64,000 nucleotides of DNA from an uncultured Methanosarcinales archaeon. Lineage in GTDB: Archaea; Nanobdellota; Nanobdellia; Woesearchaeales; ARS49. Shown here one piece after another: positions 2,863-57,418 of the stretch (position 1 is the first letter of the stretch; each line of letters begins with the position of its first letter). The notes beneath the pieces are model-generated. The model was not told the DNA's origin. It worked only from the letters and a program-made list of their open reading frames with translations, and searched no databases. A program made the position numbers and the translations under genes. The stretch spans positions 706,774 through 770,773 of the forward strand of contig CAZJXP010000001.1 in NCBI GenBank assembly GCA_964550175.1, written 5' to 3'.

Positions 2863-2892
2863 TTATTTTTCTGTTATTTTTTTCTTAGTAAC
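2863..2892 (+). terminator. T-rich terminator
   Basis: 'ttatttttctgttatttttttctt' after the stop codon. Confidence 0.4.
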
Positions 2893-2904
2893 CTTTAAAT
2901 AACT
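2893..2904 (+). promoter_or_regulatory. TATA box for tRNA-Trp
   Basis: 'cctttaaataac' about 32 nt upstream of the tRNA 5' end. Confidence 0.4.
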
Positions 2905-7184: not shown

Positions 7185-7387
7185 GACTATTCGCTCTTTT
7201 CTGTCTGCTTTTGGTTCTTGCCGCGTGTTCGACGCCTTCTGAAAAGCCGGTTGCCGGCGGCGAGCAGGCGCCGAGCTGCATGTGCACGGCAAATTACGCT
7301 CCTGTGTGCGGCTCAGACGGGAAGACGTACAGCAACTCTTGCTTCGCGAATTGCGTGAAAGTAACTTTTGTCGAAGGCGAGTGCTAG
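7181..7387 (+). CDS. lipoprotein with Kazal-type serine-protease-inhibitor domain
   Basis: Lipobox 'LVLAAC'; Kazal signature 'C-MC-x7-PVCGSDGKTYSNSCFANC-x9-C' with six Cys. Confidence 0.65.
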   Translation: MRLFALFCLLLVLAACSTPSEKPVAGGEQAPSCMCTANYAPVCGSDGKTYSNSCFANCVKVTFVEGEC

Positions 7388-17852: not shown

Positions 17853-17856
17853 TCAT

Positions 17857-18451
17857 GAAGATTCTCGCTTTCACCGACGTCCATTCCAGTTTGACTGCGA
17901 TCAAAAAAATTGAGTTGCTCGTCAAGAAAGAGAAGCCGGATTTTCTTGTGAATCTTGGAGATTTTACGGTGTTTGAGCAGAACATAGAGAATGTTTGCAA
18001 GAAACTCGTCAAACTACACCCGCACCAGCTGGTCGTGCACGGCAACCATGAGGAAGACGTCACGGCAGCATTGATGTGCAAGCGTCATGGCTGGACGTTC
18101 TGCCACAAGAAATGCGTGCAGATCGATGATGTCCTCTTTGTTGGGTATGGTGGCGGCGGGTTTGCCGACCGCGAGCCCGAGTTCGAGCGCTGCGTGAAAA
18201 ACGTCGCGAAAACGATACATTCGGCGAAGAAAGTCGTGCTATTGACGCACCAACCAGCCTATGGCACTGCCGTTGACAACAAATATGGTGACCATGTCGG
18301 CAACGAGTCATTCACAAAATTCATCAAAACGAACAAAAACGTGACTTTGGCGTTGAGCGGCCATATCCACGAGACTTCCGGAAAATCAAGCAAAATCGGA
18401 AAAACGTTATTGTGCAATCCAGGGCCGTACGGCAGGGTGTTCACGGTATGA
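17857..18451 (+). CDS. metallophosphoesterase (calcineurin-like)
   Basis: 'DVHS', 'GDF', 'GNHE', 'GHIHE' motifs. Confidence 0.7.
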
Positions 18452-25258: not shown

Positions 25259-26305
25259 TTATTTACTTTTGGTCATGCCGGCGTACGTCAGCATTTCATC
25301 ATGGAGGACTTCGAGCTTGACATTCGCGCGCTTGAACAGCTCGCGGGTCTTCTGGGCGCCGTGGTAGCGCTTGTCAGCTACGACTCGCGCGATTCCCGCG
25401 GTGATGATGAGCTTCGCGCAGACATAGCAGGGCTCCATGCGCACATAGATTGTTCCACCGTTGATTGCGATGCCGTGCTTCGCGGCCTGTGCAAGTGCGT
25501 TCTGCTCGGCGTGCGTTGTTCGGATGCAGTGCATCCTCGGCTTCCCGTCGTCTCCGATGACTTCCTGAATCTCGTGGCCGACCTCATCGCAATGCGGGAC
25601 CCCTTTCGGTGAGCCGACGTAGCCGGTCGCGAGAAGCTGTTTGTCCTTGACGATGACCGAACCAGCACGTCCTCGGTCGCAGGTCGAACGCTTCGCGACT
25701 TCGTTCGCGATGTTCATGAAATACTCGTCCCAGCTCGGCCTCGGGAGCGCGAGCTTATGCCCCCAATCGTCGATGAACTTGTCAATTTTCTTGTGGAGCT
25801 GCTCTAACGTGCCGTCGTTCTTGATTACGATTCTTGCGAGCTTGACGGTTCGGTTGAGCTGCTGATGCGAGGGATTGTCGTGGTTTTCCTGCTGCTCGCA
25901 TCTTTTCAGGTCGTTCGCGGTCTTTATTTTCTTATCTTCCGGCTTGTTTCTTGCCTTTATTCTTTCAAACCGGACGCCGAACGGCGCATCGATGCACAAC
26001 AGGATGAAGTCTTTTCGTTTCTTTAGTTCTTCAACCTCGTGCGGGTTTCTGATGCTGCTGATGACAAAATTCTTGTCGGCGTCGATCTTCTTTATCGCGC
26101 GCTCGCCTAACACTCCCGGCCCGAACTTTTCTCTCAACTCGTTCCCGAGATTGATGAGATTCTCCCTGGTCACCTCTGTTCCCCGAACCTTCGCTTCCTC
26201 GCGGATCATGTCAGAAAGAGAAAAATGGCCGTATCCCTTGGACATCAAGTAGTCGGCGACCGTGTCCTTGCCGCTGCAATACAAGCCTGTGAGCCCGATA
26301 AGCAT
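25259..26305 (-). CDS. fusion of P-loop (d)NMP-kinase-like domain with dCMP deaminase domain
   Basis: N-terminal 'GLTGLYCSGKDT' Walker A. C-terminal 'HAEQNA...PCYVCAKLI' cytidine/dCMP deaminase zinc motif. Confidence 0.75.
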   Translation of the reverse strand: MLIGLTGLYCSGKDTVADYLMSKGYGHFSLSDMIREEAKVRGTEVTRENLINLGNELREKFGPGVLGERAIKKIDADKNFVISSIRNPHEVEELKKRKDFILLCIDAPFGVRFERIKARNKPEDKKIKTANDLKRCEQQENHDNPSHQQLNRTVKLARIVIKNDGTLEQLHKKIDKFIDDWGHKLALPRPSWDEYFMNIANEVAKRSTCDRGRAGSVIVKDKQLLATGYVGSPKGVPHCDEVGHEIQEVIGDDGKPRMHCIRTTHAEQNALAQAAKHGIAINGGTIYVRMEPCYVCAKLIITAGIARVVADKRYHGAQKTRELFKRANVKLEVLHDEMLTYAGMTKSK

Positions 26306-26472
26306 GGATTTTCAATTCTCCTGTTGCTTAAATGGATTCTGCGTCGCAGAAGTAGAGGTTAGAAACGCATCGTTATTGACGACAAATTTCGTCTTTATAA
26401 ACTTCTGACCAGTCAAGAATACACGTTGGATGACAATAATCGATTTAAGTATGGGTTGAGAGAAAAATCGAT

Positions 26473-27624
26473 ATGGGGGAGTTCGTAAAAAACAAATATG
26501 GCGTGCTACCGCGCCAGGAACTTCTCGACGCATTTGATTGCGGAATGCTCAGTTCTGAAACGGATCCAAAATCATATATGCAGCCCGCGAGCGTCGACAT
26601 TCCGCTCGGCGAACGAGTCATTCGTTTAAAATCATCGTTTTTGCCCGATAATAAGATAGGGTCCGTTGAGGCAACCATTAAAAAATTGAGTCGTGATGAA
26701 TTTTCTTTAAATGAGCTTGTTCCCAAAGCGTTAGTTCGCGGACAAACCTATCTTGCCGAATTGGATATGGAAGCTAACTTACAGAAAAATTATTCTGGCA
26801 CGCTTAATCCAAAAAGCACAACCGGACGAGCGGACTGTCTCACGCGGGTTATTGTCGACGGCGTGCGCAATTATGATACGGTGTCGGAAGGAAAGGGGCG
26901 AAAATTCTGGCTTGAAATCACTCCCTTGAGCTGGGACGTGAAAGTGACCAAAGGCCTCGCACTTAATCAGTTGCGATTATCCTACGGCGAAAATCCGCTT
27001 GATGAAGGAGCATTAGTCATGGCATACATGAAGACTCCGTTGCTTATCGACCCGGAAGGACAGACCATACCCATTGAAAAAGCGTGCTTCAAGCGAGGCG
27101 GGCTGGAAATGACCGTTGACCTCGATGCGGATATTGTAGGGTATAAAGCGAAAAGAAATTCGCTCCTCGAGTTCAATCTTAGCGCGGAAAAAGGGACGCT
27201 TGCGGAACAACAAAACAAGTTCTTTGAGCCGATTGAGCGCCCGAAAGATGGCGAGCTGGTTCTTGAACCCGATACGTTCTACCTGCTCGGCACGCGTGAA
27301 AAAGCGGTGATTCCCGAGGGTCTTTGCGGCACATTGCGGGCGTACGATCCGGCATCGGCCGAAGGACGCGTTCATTACGCCGGTTTCTTCGATCCGGGCT
27401 TTTGCGCGCACGCAACATTGGAAGTCAGACTCAATCATTTACCGTTCTTGATCAAGGATGGACAGCCCATCTGCGTCTTGCAGTACGAACGCATGAAGGA
27501 CATTCCCCGCGACGAGAACGGCGAACCAAAGCTCTATGTGGGGAATTACCAGGACCAGCCGAGAGGACCTAACTTGCCGAAACAGTTCGGCGTGCGGAAA
27601 GTAGAAGCGGGAAGTTTGAGGTGA
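26473..27624 (+). CDS. dcd: dCTP deaminase-like protein, long form (dUTPase fold)
   Basis: 'LGTREKAVIPEGLCGTLRAYDPASAEGRVHYAGFFDPGF' dUTPase/dCTP-deaminase beta-barrel motif. 383 aa. Confidence 0.65.
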   Translation: MGEFVKNKYGVLPRQELLDAFDCGMLSSETDPKSYMQPASVDIPLGERVIRLKSSFLPDNKIGSVEATIKKLSRDEFSLNELVPKALVRGQTYLAELDMEANLQKNYSGTLNPKSTTGRADCLTRVIVDGVRNYDTVSEGKGRKFWLEITPLSWDVKVTKGLALNQLRLSYGENPLDEGALVMAYMKTPLLIDPEGQTIPIEKACFKRGGLEMTVDLDADIVGYKAKRNSLLEFNLSAEKGTLAEQQNKFFEPIERPKDGELVLEPDTFYLLGTREKAVIPEGLCGTLRAYDPASAEGRVHYAGFFDPGFCAHATLEVRLNHLPFLIKDGQPICVLQYERMKDIPRDENGEPKLYVGNYQDQPRGPNLPKQFGVRKVEAGSLR

Positions 27625-29336
27625 ACAGGATGACAGGAACACTAGCCCCATTAGTCAAGCACAGAGAATATTCTGAGCCTGAAAAGGTTGTGCTGAATCA
27701 TTTTTTCACTAACACGGACAAAAACATCTATTGCCCAACCGAGCATATGCCCTCTCCTGTCTGGACATTCCTTGTCGGCCAATACAGCAGAACGCCAGTT
27801 TCAATGCGCGAGCGCTTCATCGACATCTTTGACATGATGAAATCGCGCTCGGAGAAAGGAGATTGGCCAAAGAATGAAACCGTGACCGTCGAGCAGGCTG
27901 CCGACGCCATCGGCGCAGGCAAGCACGTTCCGCTCTCGTTCTTTTTTAAGACCGCGGAGAATTTCCTCGCGAAATGGGGCGTGCAGTACGGCCACAACTC
28001 GCTCAAGGACGCAGATATCGTGCGTGTCGCAATTGAAGGAGTGACGCAGACAGCGACTAACTTCATTGAGATGCCTGACCCTGAATTGGGCGCATACCAG
28101 GAAAAATCAACCAGATACATTCCATTCAGCAAGGATGACGTTGTCATTCCGCCGAGATTGGCGAACTCCCATTTTGGTCAGCGCATCAAGGCGTTGAATG
28201 ACCAGCGTATGGAAACTTATGAGCGTTGGACGCCGATATTCAGGCAATGGCTCGCGGAAAACGTGGTGCTGCGAAAGGATCACAAGACTGATGCCGCGCA
28301 CAACGGCACGCTCACCGCGCGCACGTTCGACACGATGCGATACTTCCTTCCGTTGGGGCTGACGACGTCGCTTGGCGCAACATGGCCGACCAGAGTCGCG
28401 GAAATACACCTCTCTCAGATGCTCAGCCATCCGACGGAAGAGATGCAGCTTATTGGCAAAAGCATCCTTGAAGAAGGCGTCAAGATTACGCCAGGTCTTC
28501 TACGCCATGTTAAGCCGAACGAATATTTCGGGGAAACGACGGCATCTATGAGTGAGTTGACGAGAAGCATTATAGATGCACAGCCCACCAAATATCATCG
28601 TGGCGACAGCACACTCAAGCATGCGACACTCGTCCATGCAACGCCAGGACTTGAAGACTTGCTGATTACCGGCATGCTTTATGAGTTTACGGCCAACCGT
28701 TCGTTCGCAGAACTGCAGGGCACGATTAAGGGGTTCAGCGATGCGCAGAAAGACGCCATCTTTGATGAATATCTCCGTCGACGCGGACCTCACGACCTGA
28801 TGATGCGTGGCGTAAAGCTCGGCCAGTTCACATTTGATTATTTCATTGACCACGGTGCGGCGCGGGATGTAAAACGTCAGCGCGTAGGTACGATGCTACA
28901 CCAACGTATCGGCGCGGATGAAGGGTATTCTTACCCTGAGTTCATGGAGCACGAACCTGACCTTGCTCAACTGAAAGCAGATTATGAAAAGCTGATGGAG
29001 ACCACAAGCGAACTTTACCGCGAAGTCGATCGGGATTTCCCGAATGATTCCTGCTATATTCCATCGATGGGACACCTCGGGCGCTGGCTTCATGAACATC
29101 ATGCAAGGCAAGGATCTTATGAGATCGAGCTCAGAACCCCGAGCGCCGGTCACTTTTCGTATCGACGCCTTTACCAAGAGGAATTCCGAGAAATTGAAAA
29201 AATCGCGCCGCGGTTCGCAAAATACATCCGCGCAGTGATGGGCCAAACGTCCAGCGGACGAGCGGAAGCAGAAGAGCGTGCCGCAGCGAAAGCGGCTAAG
29301 GCACTGGAAGAAGACCGAAAGAGGGCCGCACAATGA
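27621..29336 (+). CDS. hypothetical 571-aa protein in the thymidylate-synthase position of the operon (at best a very divergent ThyX-like)
   Basis: 4-nt overlaps with dcd upstream and tmk downstream. Only weak ThyX-like fragments ('YQEKSTRY'; 'TSLGATWPTRVAEIHLSQ'). The canonical RHR is absent. No ThyA 'PCH'. Confidence 0.5.
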   Translation: MNRMTGTLAPLVKHREYSEPEKVVLNHFFTNTDKNIYCPTEHMPSPVWTFLVGQYSRTPVSMRERFIDIFDMMKSRSEKGDWPKNETVTVEQAADAIGAGKHVPLSFFFKTAENFLAKWGVQYGHNSLKDADIVRVAIEGVTQTATNFIEMPDPELGAYQEKSTRYIPFSKDDVVIPPRLANSHFGQRIKALNDQRMETYERWTPIFRQWLAENVVLRKDHKTDAAHNGTLTARTFDTMRYFLPLGLTTSLGATWPTRVAEIHLSQMLSHPTEEMQLIGKSILEEGVKITPGLLRHVKPNEYFGETTASMSELTRSIIDAQPTKYHRGDSTLKHATLVHATPGLEDLLITGMLYEFTANRSFAELQGTIKGFSDAQKDAIFDEYLRRRGPHDLMMRGVKLGQFTFDYFIDHGAARDVKRQRVGTMLHQRIGADEGYSYPEFMEHEPDLAQLKADYEKLMETTSELYREVDRDFPNDSCYIPSMGHLGRWLHEHHARQGSYEIELRTPSAGHFSYRRLYQEEFREIEKIAPRFAKYIRAVMGQTSSGRAEAEERAAAKAAKALEEDRKRAAQ

Positions 29337-29965
29337 GCGACGGACTGTTTGTTGTATTAGAAGGCATTGACGGCTGCGGCAAGGGCACGCAGATGAAACG
29401 TTTGGCGAACAAACTATTCGACATGAACAAGCGTCATCATGTCGTCATGACGCGAGAACCAGGACGAAGCGATTACGGTATCGAAATCAGGAAAATATTG
29501 GCGGAAACAAACGATCCTTACCAACAAGGCGTTCGGCTTGCGCAACTATTTGTTGATGACCGGCGCAGGCATGTTGAAGGAATTATTTTGCCAACACTCG
29601 CCTACGGCGGAATCGCTTTGTCCGACCGTTATAAACATTCCACGTTGACATTTCAACACGCGCAAGGCATTCCCATGGATGAACTGTTGGCAATGCATGA
29701 AGGGCTCCCCGTCCCTGACCTCACCGTGATACTTGATGTTCCTTCTGAGGTTGGAATGGCGCGAATCGGAAAGGATACGAGCCGCGAAAAGCCAGAGTCA
29801 TTTGAGAAATTGGAATTTCAGGAAAAGCTTCGTTGGTTTTATCGCGGATTGTGTCTTACGCTTAAAGATGAGACCATTAAAATTATTGACGCAAATCGCA
29901 AACCAGAAGAGATTGAAATTGATGTCTTGAATGCAGTTATGCCTTATTTAGAAAAGGTAAAATAA
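29333..29965 (+). CDS. tmk: thymidylate kinase
   Basis: 'VVLEGIDGCGKGTQ' P-loop, DRY-like 'SDRY', lid region. Confidence 0.85.
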   Translation: MSDGLFVVLEGIDGCGKGTQMKRLANKLFDMNKRHHVVMTREPGRSDYGIEIRKILAETNDPYQQGVRLAQLFVDDRRRHVEGIILPTLAYGGIALSDRYKHSTLTFQHAQGIPMDELLAMHEGLPVPDLTVILDVPSEVGMARIGKDTSREKPESFEKLEFQEKLRWFYRGLCLTLKDETIKIIDANRKPEEIEIDVLNAVMPYLEKVK

Positions 29966-30243: not shown

Positions 30244-30753
30244 TTACTTCAACGGCTTGTCCATTTCCATCAATGTCTGGAACGAGTTCGACAACAATTT
30301 TCCGTCCTTCGCGTCGAACTTGAGGTTCAACGTTTTCATGGACTGGAAAAAGAATGTGACGTTGTAGACCGTTTCCGCGTTTATCTGCTGGATGATGAAG
30401 AACTGTTTTAACACTAATTCGCGCGGATGGTGCAGCTGGTGGTATTCGCGTGACTGCTTGAGAATTTGTTCGCTTTCAATTTTGATGTGCTTCACTTCGA
30501 GCGGTTCGATCGCGTTCGGGCTTCTCAGAATTTCCTGATTCGGGATGACCTCGACATGGAGCGCGGAAACGATGAACGTCGTGATGTTCTCCTTTTCCGC
30601 ATCGTAATAGCCGAGCTGCCAGGTGTCTTGATTTGCTTCGTCAAGCAGCTTGAACGCGTGCGCCAAGAACGGCTTCGGATTTTCCTTGCGCCAAACTTTG
30701 AATTCCTTGCTCGTGTCGAGTTGTTTGGCGATATCGGCGAATTCCATGGTCAT
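30244..30753 (-). CDS. hypothetical protein
   Basis: ORF with coherent codon usage. No motif. Confidence 0.4.
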   Translation of the reverse strand: MTMEFADIAKQLDTSKEFKVWRKENPKPFLAHAFKLLDEANQDTWQLGYYDAEKENITTFIVSALHVEVIPNQEILRSPNAIEPLEVKHIKIESEQILKQSREYHQLHHPRELVLKQFFIIQQINAETVYNVTFFFQSMKTLNLKFDAKDGKLLSNSFQTLMEMDKPLK

Positions 30754-30806: not shown

Positions 30807-30897
30807 AACTTTTTACCGGCGAATTTTGTCGTACCGCGATTGTACTTAGAATTGATACGCTAACGACTAAACAAAACGTGGCGGTAAAAAGGTTGCC
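30807..30897. repeat. MITE-like repeat, copy H
   Basis: 'ctttttaccggcg...cgactaaacaaaacgtggcggtaaaaagg'. Confidence 0.5.
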
Positions 30898-30911: not shown

Positions 30912-32771
30912 TTACTTTTTCTCGTACACAAACGCCCCATCCCAGTCCTTGGCTGGCGGATGCTTCAAGTAGAGTTCGCAGCGTTCGATGAACAACGCGC
31001 AGGACGGGTCGTTCGGTCGGATCTTTGCAGTTTCTTTGAATCCCTTGAGCGCGTCGTGGAACTTTGCCTTGAAATACAGCTCCAACGCCTTTTCGAACGA
31101 CGTGACGAACGCTTGGTCCTGGTCGACGCATAAATGATAGAGTAAAACAGGAACCTTTTTTCCCTTCACTTTCACGGCGTCGAGCTTGCGGCATAAATAT
31201 TTGCCTTTGATGTGCTCGTACGTGCTTTCCGAGATGAGGATGCTGACGCCGTACTCTTTGGTGAGCCCTTCCATGCGCGAGGCAAGGTTGACCGTGTCGC
31301 CGATGGCCGTATAGTCAAACCGTTCTTCCGAGCCCATGTTACCGACTACGGCCGGGCCGGTGTGGATGCCGATGCCGATGTTCAACGACGGGACGTTGCG
31401 CTGCTTCCAATTGGCTTGCAATTCGCGAAGCGCTTTGATTTGCTCGACGGCTGTGTCACAGGCCTTCACCGCGTGGGCATCATCAAGTAAGGGGGCGTTC
31501 CACAACGCCATGATGGCGTCCCCGATGAACTTGTCAACAGTTCCTTGGTGCTTGAGCACGATGCGCGTCATCGTGGTGAGATATTCATTCAAGAGATGGA
31601 CCAATTCTTCCGGCGAGAGCTTTTCGCTGATGCTGGTGAAGTCGCGTATGTCCGAGAACATGACCGTGAGGATTCTTTTTTCGCCACCGAGCGTCAACTG
31701 CTGGTTTTTTGAAAGTATTTCATCCAACAGTTCTTTGCTCACATATTTCGAGAACGCGTCGCGCAAATACGCCCCTTTCGTTTTTTCCTCTGTGTACGCC
31801 ACGCTCACGCCTGCGCCGGTGAAGACGGCGAACGCCAACGGGGCGAAAAACAGGTCGATAAGGAGGTTGAACTGGTTGAACGAGATGATGGCGACAATTG
31901 CGTAAACGACAAGCAACCCGATTGCCAACGGGATGGCGTAATAATACTTCAGGCGCGCGATGAGAAACATGCCAGCAAGCGCGGCGAGGATGACGCCGAG
32001 CATTACAATCAGTTTGTCCGGCGCGCGCAAGAAATCATTGTTGATGATGTTTTGGAGTATGTTTGCGTGAATCTCGACGCCGGGCATAGCTTTTCCGTCC
32101 GACGTCGGCACAAAATAGTCGTCGTGCAAGTTCGGGGCCGTCGCGCCGATCAGGACAATCTTGTTCGCGAAACTGAGATTTTTTGCGAGCACGTCGTTGA
32201 CGCTGACGGTTTTGAACGAATGAGGGGCATCCGCGAAGTTGATGAGCAACGTTTCTTTTTCGGTCGGAGTGGCGTAACCAGCCTGTTCCGCGATGGCGAA
32301 TGAGAACGGCTTCATATCATTCGCGATGCTCGGGTTTACTCGGCGCGTTATCCCGTCAGCGTCCCCGAGAAGGTTCACATAGCCCGTGATTGACGGGAAT
32401 ATCGGCAAATACGTCACTCCTTGCTGGATTTCGGACGCTAACACGACGTTATCCATCGACTGTAACGTCGTATTCAAGAGAACATCATTCGGGCTCGGCT
32501 CAAAAAAAGAAACATCAATGCCGATTACTTTCGCGTCATTCAGTTTCTCGAGAAGATTCGCGTGGACGTCGCGGCTCCAAGGCCAGTGGCCGATTGAGTT
32601 GATGCTCGCGTCATCGATTGCGACGATGACGATGCTGTCAAGAACCGCGTTACCGCCGTACAGCTTGTCCGTGAGCGTGCCCCGCACGTGGCTGAACGAA
32701 TCAACCTGCACGAGCAGCAGCGCAAGCGCGAGCAGCCCGAGGAAAATCCCTAGCTTGCCAACTTTAGCCAT
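30912..32771 (-). CDS. CHASE2 sensor – class III adenylyl cyclase – TPR protein
   Basis: Signal/TM + periplasmic CHASE2 + 3 TM; cyclase motifs 'FSDIRDFT', 'DKFIGDAIMALW', 'IGIHTGPAVVGNMG', 'NLASRME'; C-terminal TPR-like helices. Confidence 0.85.
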   Translation of the reverse strand: MAKVGKLGIFLGLLALALLLVQVDSFSHVRGTLTDKLYGGNAVLDSIVIVAIDDASINSIGHWPWSRDVHANLLEKLNDAKVIGIDVSFFEPSPNDVLLNTTLQSMDNVVLASEIQQGVTYLPIFPSITGYVNLLGDADGITRRVNPSIANDMKPFSFAIAEQAGYATPTEKETLLINFADAPHSFKTVSVNDVLAKNLSFANKIVLIGATAPNLHDDYFVPTSDGKAMPGVEIHANILQNIINNDFLRAPDKLIVMLGVILAALAGMFLIARLKYYYAIPLAIGLLVVYAIVAIISFNQFNLLIDLFFAPLAFAVFTGAGVSVAYTEEKTKGAYLRDAFSKYVSKELLDEILSKNQQLTLGGEKRILTVMFSDIRDFTSISEKLSPEELVHLLNEYLTTMTRIVLKHQGTVDKFIGDAIMALWNAPLLDDAHAVKACDTAVEQIKALRELQANWKQRNVPSLNIGIGIHTGPAVVGNMGSEERFDYTAIGDTVNLASRMEGLTKEYGVSILISESTYEHIKGKYLCRKLDAVKVKGKKVPVLLYHLCVDQDQAFVTSFEKALELYFKAKFHDALKGFKETAKIRPNDPSCALFIERCELYLKHPPAKDWDGAFVYEKK

Positions 32772-33567
32772 ACGCCGACAGTTTTTGGATTTCCTTCGTT
32801 ATGTCCGCGATTTTGTTCAACGAATCGAACTGCATCGGAGACTTTGCCACGGCGTCGTCAATGTCGATTTCGCCGCGGTCGGCTTCCTCGAACTTCTGCG
32901 CGATTTCCGCGTCGTCCAGCCCATAGGTTGATTTTGCCAAGCTCACGAGAGTCGGATGTTTGTCTAATTCTTGCTGGCGTAAGAACCTCAAGGTTTGAAT
33001 GGTTTGCGCAACATGTTCTTTCACGGACGCAAGCTCTTCTGCCGTCGCGTCTCGTTCCATGCCGGCTTCCACGACTCGGCCGGCGTTGACGATGAACGTC
33101 ATTCCATCAGCATCATACGACACGCTTCCTTCGCCGGTGAGCATGAACCCTTCCGCGAATTCGAAGCCAGTTCCACGGACACTGGCGACGTTGTTGCCTT
33201 CCTTGATGGAGTAAGATTCAACGCCCAACAATTTGGTGAACGTGTTCCAGGTGCGGCCCGATTGTTGCGAAACGACTGGGTGCTCCTTGACTAATGAGTC
33301 GAGCGTGACTTGGCTGTTTTGCTCAAGATTGAGAATGACGCTTTCATATAGGATGACTGAGGCGTGGCCGTCTCCGGTCGCGATGACGTCGCCTTCGGAT
33401 AGCTTCGTGTTGCCTGAAACCGGGTTTCCGTTTACGCTAACCGCGCCGTCGTCCACGACAAGCTGCGCCTTAACGGTCGAAGAACCGGTCGCGATTAAGT
33501 ACGCCGAACCAAGCCCAACAACAAGCACCAGAATGACAATTCCAACGATCAACAATCCTTTCTTCAT
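32764..33567 (-). CDS. FecR-domain membrane-anchored protein
   Basis: N-terminal TM; 'GDVIATGDGHASVILYESVILNLEQNSQVTL' FecR beta-fold; overlaps the cyclase start. Confidence 0.65.
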   Translation of the reverse strand: MKKGLLIVGIVILVLVVGLGSAYLIATGSSTVKAQLVVDDGAVSVNGNPVSGNTKLSEGDVIATGDGHASVILYESVILNLEQNSQVTLDSLVKEHPVVSQQSGRTWNTFTKLLGVESYSIKEGNNVASVRGTGFEFAEGFMLTGEGSVSYDADGMTFIVNAGRVVEAGMERDATAEELASVKEHVAQTIQTLRFLRQQELDKHPTLVSLAKSTYGLDDAEIAQKFEEADRGEIDIDDAVAKSPMQFDSLNKIADITKEIQKLSAYG

Positions 33568-33629
33568 GTCAACACCCCGAGCATTTTCAGGCGCATACCT
33601 TTATAAAGCTTATCTTCGTAAATAAGCCT

Positions 33630-34211
33630 ATGCGAGTGAAGTTCCAACAGCGGTGCGTCAGGTGCAGAAAGAACCTCGTGCCGATGCATTCCGGCAGGCA
33701 ATTTCCCATCTGTTCCCAGTGCCAGATGAAGGAGATCAACCAGCCTATTGAAAGCAAGAAGATGGCGAAATTCTTTGACATTCCATTGACACTTTACGAA
33801 CAATCCTCGTTTTTACGCAGCATCAAGTCACAATATCTTAGATTCGGCAGTCTTACCACGGCACAACGCTCAACATTCATCAAAGTCGTGAAGGAATTGA
33901 AGGACCCGAAGCTGCAAGCCGAGCGAGCCGCCAAGCTGGCGAAGAGCAAGGAAATGCAGCTCTCCTCAAATGATGATTCTTCAAGCTCGGTGTTATTGGT
34001 CAATGCCATCAAGAATCTGCTTGAGAAAGACACGCCGACCAAGCGACGGGCGCTTCTTACCCTCCTGTCCGAATATCAACGTCAACCGATCACATCAGAG
34101 AAGTTGTTGCTCGCGGTGCACGCCCTCGCGTCGAAATCGCGCGGCCGGCCCAAGCTCCTGCTCATGACGCCTGACGAGATCAGGTACGTGTTGGCGGGAC
34201 TTGAAGTATGA
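33630..34211 (+). CDS. hypothetical protein with N-terminal zinc ribbon
   Basis: 'CVRCRK...CSQC'. Confidence 0.45.
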   Translation: MRVKFQQRCVRCRKNLVPMHSGRQFPICSQCQMKEINQPIESKKMAKFFDIPLTLYEQSSFLRSIKSQYLRFGSLTTAQRSTFIKVVKELKDPKLQAERAAKLAKSKEMQLSSNDDSSSSVLLVNAIKNLLEKDTPTKRRALLTLLSEYQRQPITSEKLLLAVHALASKSRGRPKLLLMTPDEIRYVLAGLEV

Positions 34212-34687
34212 AGGAAAAGCACGTCGGTTACTTCGAGGGAATTCTGCAGCTCCGAGACATCGACCAGACTATCTATGATTGGGTTTTCGACACGATTGAG
34301 CGCGACGGAAAAGCCAGAGTCGCGAAAGAAGAGATTCTTTCTAACGGGTATGACCTTTACTTATCTGACCAACATTATCTTCAGGCGCTTGGGCGCAAAT
34401 TGAAGGAAAAGTTTCCTGGCGAACTCGTGGTGAGCATGCGATTGCACTCCAAGGAGCACATGACGCAGAAGGCGCTGTACCGCGTCACGGTCTTGTTCCG
34501 GGCGTTGCCATTGCACGTTGGCACCATACTGAAAATAGCCGACAGTGAATTCAAGGTGCTGTTCGTTGACAAGAAAGTGCAGATTCAGGATTTGAAATCA
34601 GGGAAGAAATCAACGATGACGCTTGAGCAAGCCGCAAAATACGCCAAATTGAATCCGGATTACGAACCCCCTACTTCAGAACGATAA
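34208..34687 (+). CDS. hypothetical protein (possible distant NMD3-like OB domain)
   Basis: Overlaps the upstream stop; 'GYFEGILQLRDID' segment. Confidence 0.4.
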   Translation: MKEKHVGYFEGILQLRDIDQTIYDWVFDTIERDGKARVAKEEILSNGYDLYLSDQHYLQALGRKLKEKFPGELVVSMRLHSKEHMTQKALYRVTVLFRALPLHVGTILKIADSEFKVLFVDKKVQIQDLKSGKKSTMTLEQAAKYAKLNPDYEPPTSER

Positions 34688-35357: not shown

Positions 35358-35550
35358 ACAGGACCTGAATTATTATGAGTATAAATAGCTTCCTTCCCGC
35401 GTAAACTGGCGCAATAAAGCCTCGTAAAGGGTTCTAGAAAGCTTCCTGGAAAGTGTGTTTATAAAGTAATCCCGCGTAAATGAGAGTTAGGCGATGCAAG
35501 CATCGTCAATCAAGCTAAAACAATACGGGCGCAAGCCCGGAGGCAACACA

Positions 35551-36726
35551 ATGGATTTCAAGAAATGGACCACGATGTTCGTGTTGTCGCTGTTCATCGT
35601 CAGCGTCGTTCCCGCGGTATTTGCGGATGAAGGCTCTGATGATGCTACTGACGACACGGATGCAGAAGATATAGCGGAAGATACCGCGGATGATGCTGCG
35701 GATGCCGCAGAAGACGCCGCAGATGACGAAGCCGATACGGCAAAAGACCGTATGAAGGCACGCGCAGACCTGTTGAAGGACCGCGCGGACAGATTGAAGG
35801 ATGCGCGAGAAAAGATAGAAGCTTCGCGAGAAAAGGCGCGAGAGACTCGAGGAAAGATCCTGGAAGCTCGACGCGAGTTCAAGGACGCGCGCGAGCGATT
35901 GCACAGCCGAGACGCGACCAAGGAAGATAAGCAGGAATTCTTGCTTTCATCCGCGGACAAGATCTTGGAATTGCTTAACAATATCCGCGATCGAGTGGAC
36001 GCATCGGACCTTGAAGACAAGGACGAGAAGCTCGCGAGCATCGATGAAGCGATCGTTGTGGTCACGGAAGCGCAGGCGACCGTTGAAGCATTAGATATGG
36101 AGACTGCGACCTCGGAAGAGATCAAGGCAGCCCGTGACGAAGTCAAGGACGCCTGGGACAAGGCGCGCAAGGTCTTGAAGACCAGCGCAGGCCATGTTGT
36201 CGCGAAGCGTGTCGGCTTGATTGTCGAACGTATGGACCACTTGGATGACAAGCTGGACAAAATCATCGCGCACTTGAGCGAGAAGGGATATGATGTCAGC
36301 GTTGCAGAATCTCTGACGGCGGACTTCGAGGCAAAGCTCGAATCAGCCGAAGCAAACTGGGAAACCGCAAAGACAGCATATGATGCTGGCGATGCAAAGG
36401 CAGGTCACGACGCACTTGTTTTGGCGCACGCCGACCTCAAGGAAGCCCACAGGCTGTTGAAGGAAATCGTCAAGAGCATCCGAAGCACGACCAAGACGGG
36501 CGCGCTTGAGGACGCGGAATCGGCGACCGAAGACGAAACCGAAGACGAAACTTCCGAAGACGTCGATGATGACGCAGCCGATGACTCGGATGAAGCCGAA
36601 GAAGCGGATGATGATGCGGATGATGAATCCGAAGACACCGTCACTGCGGATGTCAGCACAACGACTGAGACCACTATCATTGACACAACGGCAACGACCG
36701 ATGTCGATGTTGGCGTGACAGTGTAA
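35551..36726 (+). CDS. secreted acidic coiled-coil protein
   Basis: Signal peptide; D/E/A low-complexity termini; heptad-rich middle. An alternative start at 35494 is possible. Confidence 0.5.
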   Translation: MDFKKWTTMFVLSLFIVSVVPAVFADEGSDDATDDTDAEDIAEDTADDAADAAEDAADDEADTAKDRMKARADLLKDRADRLKDAREKIEASREKARETRGKILEARREFKDARERLHSRDATKEDKQEFLLSSADKILELLNNIRDRVDASDLEDKDEKLASIDEAIVVVTEAQATVEALDMETATSEEIKAARDEVKDAWDKARKVLKTSAGHVVAKRVGLIVERMDHLDDKLDKIIAHLSEKGYDVSVAESLTADFEAKLESAEANWETAKTAYDAGDAKAGHDALVLAHADLKEAHRLLKEIVKSIRSTTKTGALEDAESATEDETEDETSEDVDDDAADDSDEAEEADDDADDESEDTVTADVSTTTETTIIDTTATTDVDVGVTV

Positions 36727-37152: not shown

Positions 37153-38280
37153 GTGCGCTTAGCAAATCCATTTAAGGAACCACTTGTTTCTTCAGGTATG
37201 ATTGTCATTGACGGAGCGCAAGGGGAAGGCGGCGGGCAGATGCTTCGGACTGCGCTAGCACTATCTGCGGTTTCTCAAGAGCCGTTTCGAATGACCAATA
37301 TACGTTCTGGTCGAGATGTTCCAGGACTGAAGCCGCAGCATCTTGCCGCGGTTAAGACGGTGCAGAAGCTATGCAACGCGGTCGTGGAAGGAGATGCGAT
37401 TGGGTCGACTGAACTTACGTTCTTTCCGAAACCCATCAAAGGCGGCGCGATTGAGATTGATGTCGGAACGGCCGGAAGCGTCACTTTAGTTCTGCACGCT
37501 GCGGTGTTACCTTCATTGTTCGCGAAACAAAGCACGCGATTGCTGATTACTGGCGGGACGGATGTCGAGCATGCGCTGTCCATTGATTATTTTTCTGAAG
37601 TGTTTTTGCCGCAAATGAGGGGGTGGTGCGAGAAAATCGAAGTTAAACTGATTAAACGAGGGTATTATCCTGCCGGCGGCGGACAGGTTGAACTGTTTGT
37701 CAAGCCGAAGATCAAACGAAGCGAGTTTGAGACATTTGACTCGTTTGTTACGGCGTTGCGGGCGGTTGTTCCTCGAATGAATCTTTCTGAGCAAGGACAT
37801 CTGATGTTGATAAAAGGTGTTTCGCACGCGTCGCACGAGCTCGAGCGCGACAAAGTGGCTGAACGCCAGGCAAACGCGGCTTTAGCGATGCTGATGAAAC
37901 GCGGCGATGTCAAGATTATTTCTGAATACGTGAAAACAAGTTGTTCTGGCTCGGGGTTGACACTCTGGGCAATTTATTCTATTTTGCAGGATGACATTGA
38001 GTTTTCACGGCCGATACGACTTGGTTCTTGTGTCTTGAGTAAAGACCCGGAAGAAACGGGGAAGAACGCGGCACTGCGACTGATTGACGCGATGGATTCG
38101 TTATCTCCGGTTGACGAGCATCTGGGCGATATGCTGGTGCCGTTTGTCGCGCTTGCTACGGGGAGCTATGCAGTCGCGAACGTGACGGAGCATACGAGAA
38201 CGAATGTTTCTGTCGTGAACAGATTCTGTCCTGACGTTGTTATTGACGGAAACAAAATCAAGAAATTGCTGCAAGTTTGA
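37153..38280 (+). CDS. rtcA: RNA 3'-terminal phosphate cyclase
   Basis: 'IDGAQGEGGGQMLRTALALS' signature. The true start may be the ATG at 37198. Confidence 0.9.
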   Translation: MRLANPFKEPLVSSGMIVIDGAQGEGGGQMLRTALALSAVSQEPFRMTNIRSGRDVPGLKPQHLAAVKTVQKLCNAVVEGDAIGSTELTFFPKPIKGGAIEIDVGTAGSVTLVLHAAVLPSLFAKQSTRLLITGGTDVEHALSIDYFSEVFLPQMRGWCEKIEVKLIKRGYYPAGGGQVELFVKPKIKRSEFETFDSFVTALRAVVPRMNLSEQGHLMLIKGVSHASHELERDKVAERQANAALAMLMKRGDVKIISEYVKTSCSGSGLTLWAIYSILQDDIEFSRPIRLGSCVLSKDPEETGKNAALRLIDAMDSLSPVDEHLGDMLVPFVALATGSYAVANVTEHTRTNVSVVNRFCPDVVIDGNKIKKLLQV

Positions 38281-40444
38281 GCGACGTCTTCAAATCAAGA
38301 ATCTCGTAGCCCAAGGTGCGCTTGCTGTCGCCGTCACGCAACGACGCGTGGATGTGCTGCAGCTTTTGAAGTATGATTTTGGTCGTTGACAAATCATGGC
38401 TCGCCAACGCGTCATGCGCCTGGTTGAGCAGGTGCGGGATCTCTGCCGGTCGGGCAGCGGCGATGCCGGCTTCTTCATGACCTGAAATTTTTTCCGGCGG
38501 CTCGTACACGTGGTCTTCTATTTCTTCCACATGCGCCGGAGCTTGTGTTCTTGGCTGCGGCGGGGTGAATCGGTGCGGAACCGGGACTTTCTCGGATTTT
38601 TTAGCGGGGTGGTATTGTCGCAGTTCCTTCAATCGGTCTTCCTTGTGATGGATTGAGCTGGTTACGGAAATGACTTTGCGCGAATCCTTCTCCAACGTCC
38701 ATTCAAGTTCGTTTCGTAAGGCTTCAAGGCGCTTGATGTCGACTTTCGTTTCCTTAACCTTGGCGGCCTTTGCCTTCAACGCGTCGGCTTGTTTCCTCAA
38801 TTCTTCCGCTTTGGCCAACGCTTTCGTGATGAGCTGCTCTTTCTTCGCGAGCGAGGATTCGTATTGCTTCAATGCTGATTCTCTCTGCTTGAACTGCTCT
38901 TCGACCTTGCCGTGCGCATGAGCGACTCGTTCGAGCTCTCGGACGCGTTCAATGACGCTCTGCTCTTCCTTTGCAAGCTGCTTCTTGTCTTTTTCGAACT
39001 CTTTCGCGGCTTTCACGAGTTCGTCTTCCATTTCGCTCAAGGCGTTGATGTCGCCTTGAACGAGTTTGTTCAGCCCGGATTTCTCGTGCTTGACCTGGTC
39101 TTGGATTGCGGAAACGGTATCGCGTTCCGATTTCCATTGTGACATTGATTCTTGGAATTCTGCTTTGCGGCCATCGATTTCGCTTTGCAGCTCTTCCTTG
39201 AGCTGCGTGAGCTCCTCTTTCGCGTTTTCGATTGACGCACGGGCATTGGAGAGATTCAATTCGTCTTCCGCAAACTCCTTCTCTCGCGCAGCCATTTCTT
39301 TCTGATGCTTCTCGAGCTGGCGATCCAACGCGGTCAAACCATCTTCTTTCTGCGCGAGCGCCTTTTCTTTCTGGTCGAGAATATCTCGTCGCTTTTCAAT
39401 TTCGGATTGGAACTTGTTCATCTGCTGCGAGCGCTTCTGCAATTCCTTGTTCGCGCTTTCGGCGGCGGACTGGTGGTTCGCAAGATCTTTCTGGGCAAGC
39501 TTGATCTGCTGCTTTAAATCATCGAGACGGGATTGGGCTGCCTGCTCCTGCTGAGCGGTTTTTTGTCGGAAGACCTTGTTGAATTCCTTCTCTTTTTCAG
39601 CGTAGAGCGATTCTAGCTGCCTGATCTGGGCGCAGAGCTCGCTGTACTTCTTTCCGGCTTCCTGTTCTCGCTTTTCCTTCTTCTGCTGGAAGACCTTATT
39701 GTATTCCTTATCTTTTTCGTCGTAGAGCTTCTCTACCTGTCGGATTTGGGCGCAGAGTTCGCCGTATTCCTTTGCCGCGTTGTCGCGTTTGGACTGGGTC
39801 GCTTGCGCCGCGCGCTCCAATGATGCCTGCTTCGAGCTTAAGCTTGATTCTTGCGCGGAGATTTCCTTGGCGCGTTTTTGCAATTGGGCGTTGAGCGAAA
39901 GCAGCCCGGCGTCTTTGTCGTTCAGGACCTTTTCTTTGATATCGAGGAGCTGTTCTCGCTTTTCAAGATGATTCTGCAATCCTCGTAATTCGTGGTATTT
40001 TTTTGCGATCGCGCGCTCGCTGCTGCTCAATTCAGTTCTATTTTCGACCAAATCATCGCTGAGCGCCTTCAGTTCCGACTTCACCAATTTTACCTGTGCT
40101 TCCGCGTTTCTCTTTGCGTTTTCGAGCCCCTCGATTTCCTTCAGCACTTCGTGCTTCCGGTTTTCGGCGCGGTTGACCTTCGCCATCGTTTCCCTGATGA
40201 GGGACTCCTTGTCAGAGAATGCGCGCGCTTTTTGAACGAGAGTTGCTTCGAGATCGGCTAATGCGTGCTCTTTCTTCTTTATTTCTTGCGACTTCTTGTC
40301 AAAGACCTTTTCGAGGTCGTGCAATTGGGAGGATTTCTTTCTGAGAATGCGTTCGTAGTCCGCGGTTGACGGGGCGGGAGGAGGCGGGAGCTCGCTCTTA
40401 AACATCGAAAACAGGGTCCGCGCCCCTTTCGCGGTCGTTGCCAT
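38258..40444 (-). CDS. long coiled-coil protein with internal repeats
   Basis: 728 aa, heptad-rich, Q/E/K-rich. No enzymatic motif. Confidence 0.55.
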   Translation of the reverse strand: MATTAKGARTLFSMFKSELPPPPAPSTADYERILRKKSSQLHDLEKVFDKKSQEIKKKEHALADLEATLVQKARAFSDKESLIRETMAKVNRAENRKHEVLKEIEGLENAKRNAEAQVKLVKSELKALSDDLVENRTELSSSERAIAKKYHELRGLQNHLEKREQLLDIKEKVLNDKDAGLLSLNAQLQKRAKEISAQESSLSSKQASLERAAQATQSKRDNAAKEYGELCAQIRQVEKLYDEKDKEYNKVFQQKKEKREQEAGKKYSELCAQIRQLESLYAEKEKEFNKVFRQKTAQQEQAAQSRLDDLKQQIKLAQKDLANHQSAAESANKELQKRSQQMNKFQSEIEKRRDILDQKEKALAQKEDGLTALDRQLEKHQKEMAAREKEFAEDELNLSNARASIENAKEELTQLKEELQSEIDGRKAEFQESMSQWKSERDTVSAIQDQVKHEKSGLNKLVQGDINALSEMEDELVKAAKEFEKDKKQLAKEEQSVIERVRELERVAHAHGKVEEQFKQRESALKQYESSLAKKEQLITKALAKAEELRKQADALKAKAAKVKETKVDIKRLEALRNELEWTLEKDSRKVISVTSSIHHKEDRLKELRQYHPAKKSEKVPVPHRFTPPQPRTQAPAHVEEIEDHVYEPPEKISGHEEAGIAAARPAEIPHLLNQAHDALASHDLSTTKIILQKLQHIHASLRDGDSKRTLGYEILDLKTSLKLAAIS
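39570..39790. repeat. intragenic tandem duplication, about 120 bp ×2
   Basis: '...gaagaccttgttgaattccttctctttttcagcgtagagcg...gggcgcagagctcgc' repeated with about 85% identity. Encodes 'EYGELCAQIRQ(V/L)E(K/S)LY'. Confidence 0.6.
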
Positions 40445-46058: not shown

Positions 46059-46820
46059 ATGGAAATAAACGCACAAACTGCGGAATTATGCGGCATCATT
46101 CTTGGTGATGGTCACATGCATAAAACGAAAAATCGAATAACGATCTCTGGCAGCAAGGATGACATCCATTATTTCCGCAACCGAGTTATTCCCTTGTTTC
46201 TCCAATGTTTCCCAGACATACATCCCGTATTAGTTCGACTTAAAACAGCCGAGGCATATAATCTTCAAGTTGAGAATAAGTTAGCATTTCAGTTTTTTAT
46301 TCAATCATATAATTTGCAACGGGGACCCAAAGAGGCTATGCACATTCCTTTAGTCATCCTTGCGAATGATTCACTTATTCCTCATTTTCTCCGAGGACTT
46401 TTTGATACTGATGGTTCATTTAAATTTTGCAAACAGGCACGCGGTTATGCATATTACCCTCGAATACGCATTGCTTTAGCCGAGTCTCCTCTCACTGATG
46501 CGTTACAGTTCCTTTTTACGCGCGCGGGATTTAAGGCGATAAAATCAGTGAAACTGAATCATGGGTTTGCAACGATGAAGAATCTTGTAACCTACGAAAT
46601 TTCCGGTTGCGCGGCTTTTGAACGGTGGATGACTCATATTTGTCCCGCTAATCCTGTGCAAAAAGCAAAGTATGACTATTGGACGAAATATGGACGTCAT
46701 GAGCCAGGAATGATTTATGAAGAAAGAATTTACAAAATAGCCTCGGGCGGATTCGAACCGCCGTCAACGCGTCCAGAGCGCGCTATACTTGACCAACTAT
46801 ACGACGAGGCTTTAAAGTAA
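46059..46820 (+). CDS. free-standing LAGLIDADG homing endonuclease (double motif)
   Basis: 'LCGIILGDGHM' and 'LRGLFDTDGSF'. Own TATA 'catataaatg' about 22 nt upstream. The last ~28 codons are antisense to tRNA-Gln. Confidence 0.7.
   Translation: MEINAQTAELCGIILGDGHMHKTKNRITISGSKDDIHYFRNRVIPLFLQCFPDIHPVLVRLKTAEAYNLQVENKLAFQFFIQSYNLQRGPKEAMHIPLVILANDSLIPHFLRGLFDTDGSFKFCKQARGYAYYPRIRIALAESPLTDALQFLFTRAGFKAIKSVKLNHGFATMKNLVTYEISGCAAFERWMTHICPANPVQKAKYDYWTKYGRHEPGMIYEERIYKIASGGFEPPSTRPERAILDQLYDEALK
46738..46811 (-). tRNA. tRNA-Gln (anticodon CTG)
   Basis: Acceptor AGCCTCG/CGAGGCT (A1:U72); D stem GTAT/GTAT; anticodon stem GCGCG/CGCGT with loop CTCTGGA; T arm GGCGG-TTCGAAT-CCGCC. TATA 'agctttttaaacc' upstream. 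Confidence 0.8.
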
Positions 46821-48056: not shown

Positions 48057-48129
48057 TAGCCCCACCCGGATTCGAACCGGGGTCCGGTGGTCCAAAGCCA
48101 CCTATCCTTGACCGCTAGACGATGGGGCT
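48057..48129 (-). tRNA. tRNA-Gln (anticodon TTG)
   Basis: Acceptor AGCCCCA/TGGGGCT (A1:U72); anticodon stem GGTGG/CCACC with loop CTTTGGA; T arm CCCGG-TTCGAAT-CCGGG. TATA 'ctttttaaagc' upstream. Confidence 0.8.
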
Positions 48130-57357: not shown

Positions 57358-57418
57358 CCTTTTAATAGTAGTAATTTAAAAAGCTCCCAGGAGCTTCAGG
57401 AAGGGGTGGAGATGAACA

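Follow-up and report, generated by a model that had tools for sequence, protein, structure and literature searches.

Introduction

Receptor adenylyl cyclases that carry a CHASE2 sensor domain and are accompanied by a FecR-domain protein form a type of signalling module already known from bacteria. Here we describe such a pair in an archaeon, on the minus strand (positions 30,912–33,567) of a 64,000-nucleotide stretch of contig CAZJXP010000001.1, hereafter called the window, from an uncultured member of the Woesearchaeales. It consists of a gene for a 619-amino-acid (aa) receptor-type cyclase and, directly upstream, a gene for a 267-aa membrane-anchored FecR-fold protein, hereafter called the partner; databases already list proteins of these two kinds from Woesearchaeota, under the names "adenylate/guanylate cyclase domain-containing" and "FecR domain-containing". 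The best overall explanation of the data, which we consider likely, is that the pair forms an operon of two genes in a Woesearchaeota-type (DPANN) archaeon, by which extracytoplasmic sensing would be coupled to the synthesis of cyclic AMP (cAMP).

In Sinorhizobium meliloti, the CHASE2 adenylate cyclases CyaD1, CyaD2 and CyaK belong to the same cAMP pathway as the FecR protein SMc02177, the product of a Clr-target gene (PMC5498481). CyaD1 without its CHASE2 domain is constitutively active, indicating that CHASE2 is inhibitory (PMC5498481), and the rhizobial CHASE2 cyclases respond to a plant protein via the outer-membrane β-barrel NsrA, with the Crp-like regulator Clr as the output (PMC13001267). 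The window locus shares with this system an N-terminal transmembrane helix, an extracytoplasmic CHASE2 domain, further transmembrane helices and a class III cyclase domain, as well as the association with a FecR protein, and the rhizobial homologs (loci L031, L038 and L055) align with the window cyclase over nearly the full length with 30–33% identity. Whereas the rhizobial route passes through outer-membrane NsrA and Clr, the archaeon is without an outer membrane, and the window revealed no Crp-like effector. Furthermore, SMc02177 is encoded by a downstream target gene and not by a co-translated operon partner, unlike the archaeal protein.

A gene cluster of Campylobacterota combines a CHASE2 adenylate cyclase with a phosphodiesterase, a FecR-domain protein and a tetratricopeptide repeat (TPR) protein (PMC9239204). 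As in the window, CHASE2 serves as the cyclase sensor and the FecR gene is clustered with it, and in the Sulfurimonas locus L067 the FecR open reading frame (ORF) lies directly upstream. The TPR element is a separate protein in Campylobacterota, a C-terminal tail in the window cyclase and a separate small gene in the Woesearchaeota locus L089, where a 145-aa TPR protein is encoded immediately 5′ of the FecR gene (2,462–2,899, plus strand), in the order TPR–FecR–CHASE2 cyclase. While a phosphodiesterase gene belongs to the Campylobacterota cluster, the archaeal loci have no linked one; the FecR protein of Campylobacterota is outer-membrane-associated (PMC9239204), whereas the archaeal partner would reside in the cytoplasmic membrane and has an additional helical C-terminus. 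The Burkholderia "BiofilmReg" operon encodes a response regulator, a LysM+FecR protein and a CHASE2 histidine kinase (PMC5192318), and again an extracytoplasmic FecR-domain protein is encoded immediately before a CHASE2 receptor. Since a FecR protein is paired with a CHASE2 histidine kinase in this case, the FecR and CHASE2 combination appears to be a reusable input module. The output is a histidine kinase and response regulator instead of a cyclase, and the peptidoglycan-binding LysM domain would be meaningless in an archaeon.

For the catalytic domain, the counterparts with solved structures are Spirulina CyaC (1wc0/1wc1) and Pseudomonas aeruginosa CyaB (3r5g), which share 37–42% identity with the window enzyme and have the identical Lys/Thr pair, two Asp, Asn and Arg. 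Unlike the window protein, the solved constructs are isolated catalytic domains, without a CHASE2 sensor or a TPR-like tail, and the native enzymes have N-terminal sensor regions other than CHASE2.

Results

Gene arrangement of the locus

The cyclase gene occupies positions 30,912–32,771 and the partner gene positions 32,764–33,567, both on the minus strand. The two ORFs share exactly 8 nucleotides (nt), ATGGCTAA (32,764–32,771, minus strand), which hold the start codon of the cyclase (ATG) and the stop codon of the partner (TAA), and the junction reads GCG TATGGCTAA AGT. A preliminary description of this DNA, made from the sequence without database searches, had reported the same two ORFs and the 8-nt overlap, and both were recovered here. 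This arrangement suggests that the two genes are translationally coupled; in homologous loci, the spacing between them lies between −4 and +30 nt.

Reading of the flanking sequence revealed a TATA-box-like archaeal element, TTTATAAA (33,600–33,607, minus strand), about 36 nt 5′ of the partner ATG, as the putative promoter of the pair, with GGGGTG (33,573–33,578) between the box and the ATG as a possible Shine-Dalgarno-like element. At the other end, T-runs (TTTTT and TTTTGTTT; 30,869–30,890, minus strand) lie 22–45 nt past the cyclase stop codon and possibly represent an archaeal terminator. The downstream gene for a 169-aa protein (30,244–30,753) was considered as a third operon member and rejected. 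Since this gene is equipped with a separate TTTATA box and lacks conservation in related loci, showing no similarity to the downstream genes of the archaeal loci L001 and L005, the putative operon comprises two genes. An exact-sequence look-up of the cyclase returned no record, and that of the partner matched only a 5.5-kb Logan contig with the identical gene order.

The catalytic domain and its predicted product

The class III cyclase catalytic domain (31,152–31,670, minus strand; residues 368–540) matches Guanylate_cyc (PF00211) with an E-value of 1.1e-28 and 100.6 bits, against a Pfam gathering threshold (GA) of 21.9. It also matches 51 solved cyclases at E<1e-5, the closest of which by sequence are P. 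aeruginosa CyaB (3r5g, E 4.5e-39) and Spirulina CyaC (1wc1, E 8e-35), and Foldseek superposed the model on 1wc1 and 3r5g with target-normalised template-modelling scores of 0.90–0.91 and a root-mean-square deviation (rmsd) of 1.8 Å over about 195 residues. In full-length numbering, the metal residues are D374 and D418, the substrate residues K414 and T488, and the transition-state residues N495 and R499. All six are present in one chain, were aligned to those of CyaC and CyaB, and are invariant in 65 homologs; the 65-sequence alignment, like the AlphaFold2 (AF2) models, begins at codon 2, so its numbering is one below the full-length numbering.

Lys414 lies in the motif VDKFIGD, and Thr488, in FDYTAIGD, aligns with the Thr of SDFTAIG in CyaC and of MDYTIIG in CyaB, while the guanylyl cyclase Cya2 has Glu and Gly at the two positions. 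Subclass IIIb is defined by the replacement of the substrate Asp with Thr, the Lys being retained (PMC2613629). Because of its Lys414/Thr488 pair, the window protein is assigned to the class IIIb adenylyl cyclases, and as judged from its residues it is a complete enzyme like CyaC and CyaB, not a degenerate one, with 3′,5′-cAMP formed from ATP as the predicted product. The preliminary description had deduced cAMP from the Lys in DKFIGD; this argument holds and is sharpened by Thr488, which had been missed. It had also named the substrate-specifying residues as a possible sign of an inactive cyclase, but all six catalytic residues are intact.

The CHASE2 sensor, membrane part, linker and tail of the cyclase

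Hydropathy analysis and an AlphaFold model (mean predicted local distance difference test (pLDDT) 88) gave a chain order of one transmembrane helix, an alpha/beta CHASE2 domain and three further transmembrane helices, then a long helical linker leading to the catalytic domain, and finally three helices at the C-terminus. The first transmembrane helix (residues 4–22) is followed by the CHASE2 sensor domain (31,971–32,720, minus strand; residues 18–267), which matches 239 of the 257 positions of PF05226 with E 7.3e-50 and 170.4 bits against a GA of 26.3. The signature DDxSxxxxGxWPWxR is found at residues 53–67, its residues are invariant in the 65 sequences, and the region has a pLDDT of about 90. 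The block of three transmembrane helices (31,797–32,012, minus strand; residues ~254–325) then brings the chain back to the cytoplasm. Hydropathy peaks at 3–21, 253–271, 279–297 and 306–324, and the AF2 helices of the later block span 252–272, 275–300 and 308–339. CHASE2 lies between the N-terminal helix and the later block, ahead of the output domain, and the same layout was described for the Burkholderia histidine kinase (PMC5192318). From the number of transmembrane helices (four) and the lysines located N-terminally and in the loop between the second and third, CHASE2 is predicted to face outside and the cyclase domain inside. As archaea are not expected to have an outer membrane, the sensor is better called extracytoplasmic than periplasmic, the word used previously.

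The cytoplasmic helical linker between the fourth transmembrane helix and the catalytic domain (31,671–31,766, minus strand; residues 336–367) contains the motifs AFxKYVS and LxLGG, in which A338, F339, K341, Y342, L358, L360, G361 and G362 (alignment numbering) are nearly invariant. It aligns with the linker of the Cya2 fusion 6fht and may act as the signal transducer.

The chain ends in a TPR-like C-terminal tail (30,915–31,136, minus strand; residues 546–619), modelled as three helices (552–566, 570–581 and 588–602). No TPR profile reaches its threshold on the C-terminal 75 aa, and the sole match of the window tail is to ANAPC3 (E 0.12, 13 bits). A permissive TPR scan of five tails gave E 0.06–0.1 for the archaeal homologs, and the best score, 25.7 bits against a GA of 27, came from a deltaproteobacterial homolog. 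TPR proteins normally carry three or more tandem repeats, and six members of the archaeal cyclase family, of ~550 aa, are without the tail. An optional, degenerate TPR-like cap is the most fitting description; the earlier label "TPR protein" overstates a marginal, single three-helix element. Weak profile matches to PADR1_N and to the TOMM kinase/cyclase family (20.8 versus 705 bits) were dismissed as spurious.

The FecR-like partner protein

The partner (AF2 mean pLDDT 87.4) begins with a single transmembrane helix of the signal-anchor type (33,487–33,561, minus strand; residues 3–27; Kyte-Doolittle peak 2.78; AF2 helix 2–26, in numbering one lower). Only two residues, Met-Lys, precede this helix, and the homologs have at most a short charged N-terminus. 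By the positive-inside rule, the partner is predicted to be a type-II-anchored surface protein with its bulk outside the cell. The helix is followed by an all-beta FecR-fold domain (33,049–33,468, minus strand; residues 34–173), in which the motif VASVRGTxF (residues 127–135) is invariant across the partner family. Among the partner orthologs, 20 of 22 match the FecR profile PF04773 at E<=0.01 (best 1.1e-10). Foldseek matched the model of the partner, with a probability of 1.0, to the anti-sigma protein BDI_1681 (4m0h/4m0n, E 1.4e-6) and to the CCSSD of PupR (6ovk, E 9.5e-4); the superposition on FecR-family structures covers about 134 columns with an rmsd of 3.3 Å, and no other significant fold match was obtained. 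The partner is a FecR protein by family and by modelled fold.

The C-terminal region of the partner is helical (32,770–33,042, minus strand; residues 176–266; AF2 helices 175–265). The bacterial FecR neighbours align only to positions up to about 190 of the partner profile, and no counterpart of the helical C-terminus was found in them. Full-length matches of the partner numbered 134 in a word-indexed search and 263 clusters (50% identity) at E<=1e-30 in an exhaustive search, and every named one is labelled Woesearchaeota, Nanoarchaeota or "archaeon". The helical region appears, among the sequences found so far, to be limited to archaeal members.

FecR/PupR anti-sigma regulators share with the archaeal partner the beta-domain fold and the single transmembrane helix. 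However, because only two residues precede this helix, the partner is without an N-terminal cytoplasmic anti-sigma domain and cannot be a FecR/PupR-type anti-sigma factor; it shares a domain with these regulators and is not a member of an anti-sigma system. Neither ECF sigma factor genes nor TonB-dependent transducer genes were found in the window or in nine archaeal loci, and, to our knowledge, neither is expected in an archaeon. The Leptospira adhesins Lsa33 and Lsa19 were rejected as the identity of the partner (18.5 versus 420 bits, E 9e-4, far below the cut-off), the similarity being due to the shared FecR domain, and matches to S4 and S4_2 (21.7 bits against a GA of 22.8, in only 3 of 22 orthologs) were regarded as spurious.

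Conservation and origin of the pair

The window also contains genes for uS15 with S13_N, Trm1, XPD, a Hel308-type helicase, NucS, an ATP-dependent ligase, FtsZ and RtcA, and its dCTP deaminase/ThyX/Tmk cluster likewise belongs to the archaeal-context genes. The archaeal host assumed previously is supported by this company, in particular by uS15, Trm1, the helicase, NucS and the ligase. For the cyclase, more than 120 full-length homologs (90%-identity clusters) were retrieved at E < 1e-158 with 43–69% identity, and almost all of the named ones are labelled Woesearchaeota, Nanoarchaeota, Pacearchaeota or "archaeon". The earlier statement that such cyclases are rare in Archaea agrees with the literature for the domain as a whole (PMC8646023), but not within Woesearchaeota and Pacearchaeota, where the window cyclase belongs to a large and common family.

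In all nine archaeal loci with enough upstream sequence, the cyclase gene is immediately preceded by the partner gene in the same orientation, at a spacing of −8 to +30 nt, while the remaining neighbours vary. Pairwise divergences of partner and cyclase are strongly correlated (r = 0.886, Mantel p about 0.002), the partner evolving faster. Relative to 31 neighbouring genes, the z-scores of both genes for GC content, third-codon-position GC content (GC3) and synonymous codon usage are within ±1 (0.74/−0.98 and −0.34/−0.06). In a neighbour-joining tree of 67 archaeal and 70 bacterial cyclases, the archaeal (DPANN) set forms one clade in 98 of 100 bootstraps, for which the tree resolves no sister group.

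GTDB was scanned with one genome per species, and the figures given here describe the best 80 loci listed without implying prevalence. Among these, 77 are bacterial and come from many phyla. The nearest bacterial cyclases among the loci listed belong to Patescibacteria, Saccharibacteria, Nitrospinota, Bdellovibrionales, Acidobacteriota, Leptospira and Proteobacteria; they are 29–41% identical to the window cyclase, the alignment usually running through the tail. With an iterated profile, 24 of the 80 loci showed a FecR-like ORF no more than 4 kb away from the cyclase, which in 12 of them lies directly upstream. Nine of the ten bacterial upstream ORFs tested pass the FecR gathering threshold of Pfam, and together with the published clusters (PMC9239204, PMC5192318) this bears out the earlier comparison of the pair with a bacterial module of CHASE2 cyclase and FecR protein. 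In the window, as in that module, a FecR gene adjoins a CHASE2-receptor gene in the same orientation.

The order from FecR to CHASE2 cyclase was also observed in four Patescibacteria/Saccharibacteria loci of the Candidate Phyla Radiation (CPR; L008, L014, L016 and L027), with much longer FecR proteins of 450–690 aa, one of them with DUF5667. The CPR cyclases are among the bacterial ones nearest to the archaeal clade by distance, which hints at a CPR–DPANN link, though without resolution in the tree. One homolog of the clade, P0064, is deposited under "Candidatus Binatia bacterium"; it lies on an 8-kb contig (L090; GCA_035476335.1, DATILO010000033.1) of that metagenome-assembled genome, which carries the pair together with TFS/RPB9, NucS and DCD. 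Since TFS/RPB9, NucS and DCD occur there in the same order as in the Woesearchaeota locus L001, the contig is almost certainly a mis-binned archaeal one, and P0064 was rejected as a bacterial member of the clade.

Discussion

On the basis of these results, the following mechanism can be proposed. An external cue would be perceived by the outward-facing CHASE2 domain, to which the FecR-like partner is most likely bound as a stoichiometric co-sensor or modulator. The signal would be relayed through the transmembrane helices and the conserved linker and change the cyclase activity. The cyclase is expected to work as a homodimer, since the full catalytic set resides in one chain as in other class III cyclases, and two active sites at the interface would convert ATP into 3′,5′-cAMP. 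By analogy with S. meliloti CyaD1, CHASE2 probably keeps the enzyme off until a signal arrives. All prokaryotic IIIb adenylyl cyclases tested respond to inorganic carbon, namely CO2/bicarbonate (PMC2613629), which may by analogy also stimulate the archaeal enzyme as a IIIb member.

Several observations weigh against the interpretation of the pair as a cAMP-producing sensory operon. Among the about 47 ORFs of the window, neither a cyclic-nucleotide-binding protein nor a dedicated cAMP phosphodiesterase was found, and hence no output of the pathway is visible there; a metallophosphoesterase (17,813–18,451) considered as the phosphodiesterase was rejected as YfcE-like with a sub-threshold match. 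A detectable FecR gene accompanies the cyclase in a minority of bacterial loci (the above 24 of the best 80), and since most of these loci show none, the cyclase can work without a FecR partner. SMc02177 is dispensable for signal perception in S. meliloti (PMC5498481), which calls for caution in assigning a co-sensor function to the partner. The window partner itself scores 18.5–18.6 bits against PF04773 (E 2.7e-3, profile positions 1–80 of 97), below the GA of 24, so that its FecR identity is based on family and structure. Thus, of the domains named in the preliminary description, CHASE2 and Guanylate_cyc were found far above their cut-offs, while for FecR the family and the fold stood and the Pfam threshold was missed by the window protein alone. 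Finally, the activity of the archaeal cyclase clade is a prediction from sequence.

One alternative is that the FecR-like protein is an independent surface protein, for instance an adhesin or an S-layer-associated protein, which only shares a transcript with the cyclase. The weak similarity to the FecR-type adhesins Lsa33 and Lsa19, the dispensable SMc02177 and the many bacterial cyclase homologs without a FecR neighbour would agree with this. We nevertheless consider it unlikely, as the same-strand adjacency is strict in all nine archaeal loci while the other surroundings change, the partner strongly co-diverges with the cyclase, both ectodomains are predicted on the same side of the membrane, and remote bacterial phyla, CPR among them, show this gene order too, as do published clusters (PMC9239204, PMC5192318). 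That the enzyme makes cGMP, or cCMP/cUMP in a Pycsar-like manner, or is a catalytically dead receptor, seems improbable. The specificity is predicted from two residues only, class III cyclases can have side activities (PMC8646023), and Cya2 is among the close structural relatives; however, the window enzyme has the adenylyl cyclase pair of CyaC and CyaB in place of the Glu/Gly of Cya2. The invariance of the metal, substrate and transition-state residues across 65 sequences contradicts a dead receptor, and the receptor architecture and housekeeping-like conservation are unlike those of defence islands.

The preliminary description had regarded the signalling genes as acquired and had proposed a cyclase-domain phylogeny and, for horizontal transfer, a check of composition. 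A recent import of a bacterial cassette into this archaeon would be in keeping with the far greater diversity of the cyclase family in bacteria, to which 77 of the best 80 GTDB loci belong, and with the very few class III adenylyl cyclases reported in Archaea (PMC8646023). Both checks turned out otherwise: GC, GC3 and codon usage match those of the 31 neighbouring genes, and the 67 archaeal sequences form their single clade, with identities of 45–69% inside it as against 36–41% to the nearest bacterial proteins among those listed. Because of this native codon usage, the single archaeal clade and the retention of the pair in nine of nine archaeal loci, with archaeal flanks and differing neighbours, a recent import is very improbable. 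The data argue for an old copy, maintained by vertical descent, of a module that occurs in many bacterial phyla as well, and any transfer from bacteria to DPANN was likely ancient. The chance that bacterial DNA was mis-joined to an archaeal contig by assembly or binning is negligible: the deposition of P0064 as a "Binatia bacterium" could be taken to favour it, but that contig is itself mis-binned archaeal, archaeal genes of uniform composition flank the pair on both sides, and identical junctions occur in the independent assembly L086.

cAMP has been measured in archaea, but no archaeal protein making, degrading or binding it has been characterised, according to a 2023 review, and the widely annotated class IV (CYTH) "cyclases" of archaea are not cyclases (PMC10249747). 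Only very few class III enzymes are described from Archaea (PMC8646023), and in one comparative genomics study of Woesearchaeota cyclases and cAMP go unmentioned. Against this background, DPANN archaea of the Woesearchaeota/Pacearchaeota type stably carry a canonical and intact, predicted receptor adenylyl cyclase with a dedicated surface partner. The locus is one of the few credible candidates for archaeal cAMP synthesis and offers a concrete, testable enzyme that can be expressed in E. coli; the pair also supplies a conserved two-protein input module of FecR and CHASE2. These results correct the idea that such DPANN genes are recent bacterial imports or contamination.

A bolder idea, which we put forward as a speculation with rather low confidence, is that the pair serves Woesearchaeota and Pacearchaeota as their main sensor of the environment or of host contact and is the first genuine cAMP-generating receptor system of archaea. 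If this were true, the FecR-fold partner with its archaeal-only helical domain would recognise a macromolecular signal, displayed by a partner cell or present in the environment, resembling the rhizobial CHASE2 cyclases that answer a plant protein. It would switch on cAMP synthesis, and cAMP would control an attachment or symbiosis programme via effectors other than classical Crp-type ones. The occurrence of the pair in episymbiotic bacteria of the CPR (Patescibacteria and Saccharibacteria) would then represent a shared solution of, or an exchange between, ultra-small symbiont radiations.

Other features of the window

The preliminary description had also pointed to a GGDEF pair (56,023–57,976), which exists, although only one of its members passes the cut-off. 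This 444-aa GGDEF protein (56,023–57,357, plus strand) matches Pfam with E 1e-25 and TIGR00254 with 94 bits against a cut-off of 37; it has a near-canonical YGGEEL active-site motif, its domain is split by an insertion, and its codon usage is native. The 185-aa neighbour (57,419–57,976, plus strand) is GGDEF-like, motif-less and sub-threshold (21.7 versus 23.8 bits). GGDEF matches in DPANN and Asgard archaea have been noted (PMC8646023).

Divergent from the FecR gene, two plus-strand genes overlapping by 4 nt encode a 193-aa protein without a Pfam match (33,630–34,211) and a 159-aa protein matching only the C-terminal part of NMD3 (34,208–34,687). They are also found in L001 and L086 and look like a conserved split or truncated NMD3-like pair.

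On the other side, positions 25,259–29,965 hold a dense pyrimidine deoxynucleotide cluster, composed of a kinase–dCMP deaminase fusion (25,259–26,305, minus strand), a two-domain dCTP deaminase (26,473–27,624), an unusually long, 571-aa ThyX-like protein with a Thy1 match only at residues 110–291 (27,621–29,336) and a thymidylate kinase (29,333–29,965). The last three genes are joined by 4-nt overlaps, and DCD/ThyX genes also occur near the cyclase in L001 and L090.

A stand-alone metallo-beta-lactamase-fold protein (7,384–8,259, minus strand) resembles the C-terminal domain of ComEC/Rec2 (TIGR00361, 120 bits, cut-off 190), and a MoxR-type AAA ATPase and the VWA-domain protein encoded by the next, overlapping gene (14,101–16,297, plus strand) form a typical MoxR–VWA pair. 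A 410-aa, highly acidic protein rich in Asp, Glu and Ala (35,494–36,726, plus strand) has a signal-anchor-like N-terminus and no Pfam match; the 259-aa Ser-rich ORF opposite to it (35,487–36,266, minus strand) is probably a low-complexity mirror artefact. A 728-aa ORF (38,258–40,444, minus strand) is without any family match. Finally, a 253-aa ORF with a weak LAGLIDADG_3 match, homing-endonuclease-like (46,059–46,820, plus strand), overlaps the tRNA-Gln(CTG) gene (46,738–46,811, minus strand), and a second tRNA-Gln gene, with the anticodon TTG, lies at 48,057–48,129.

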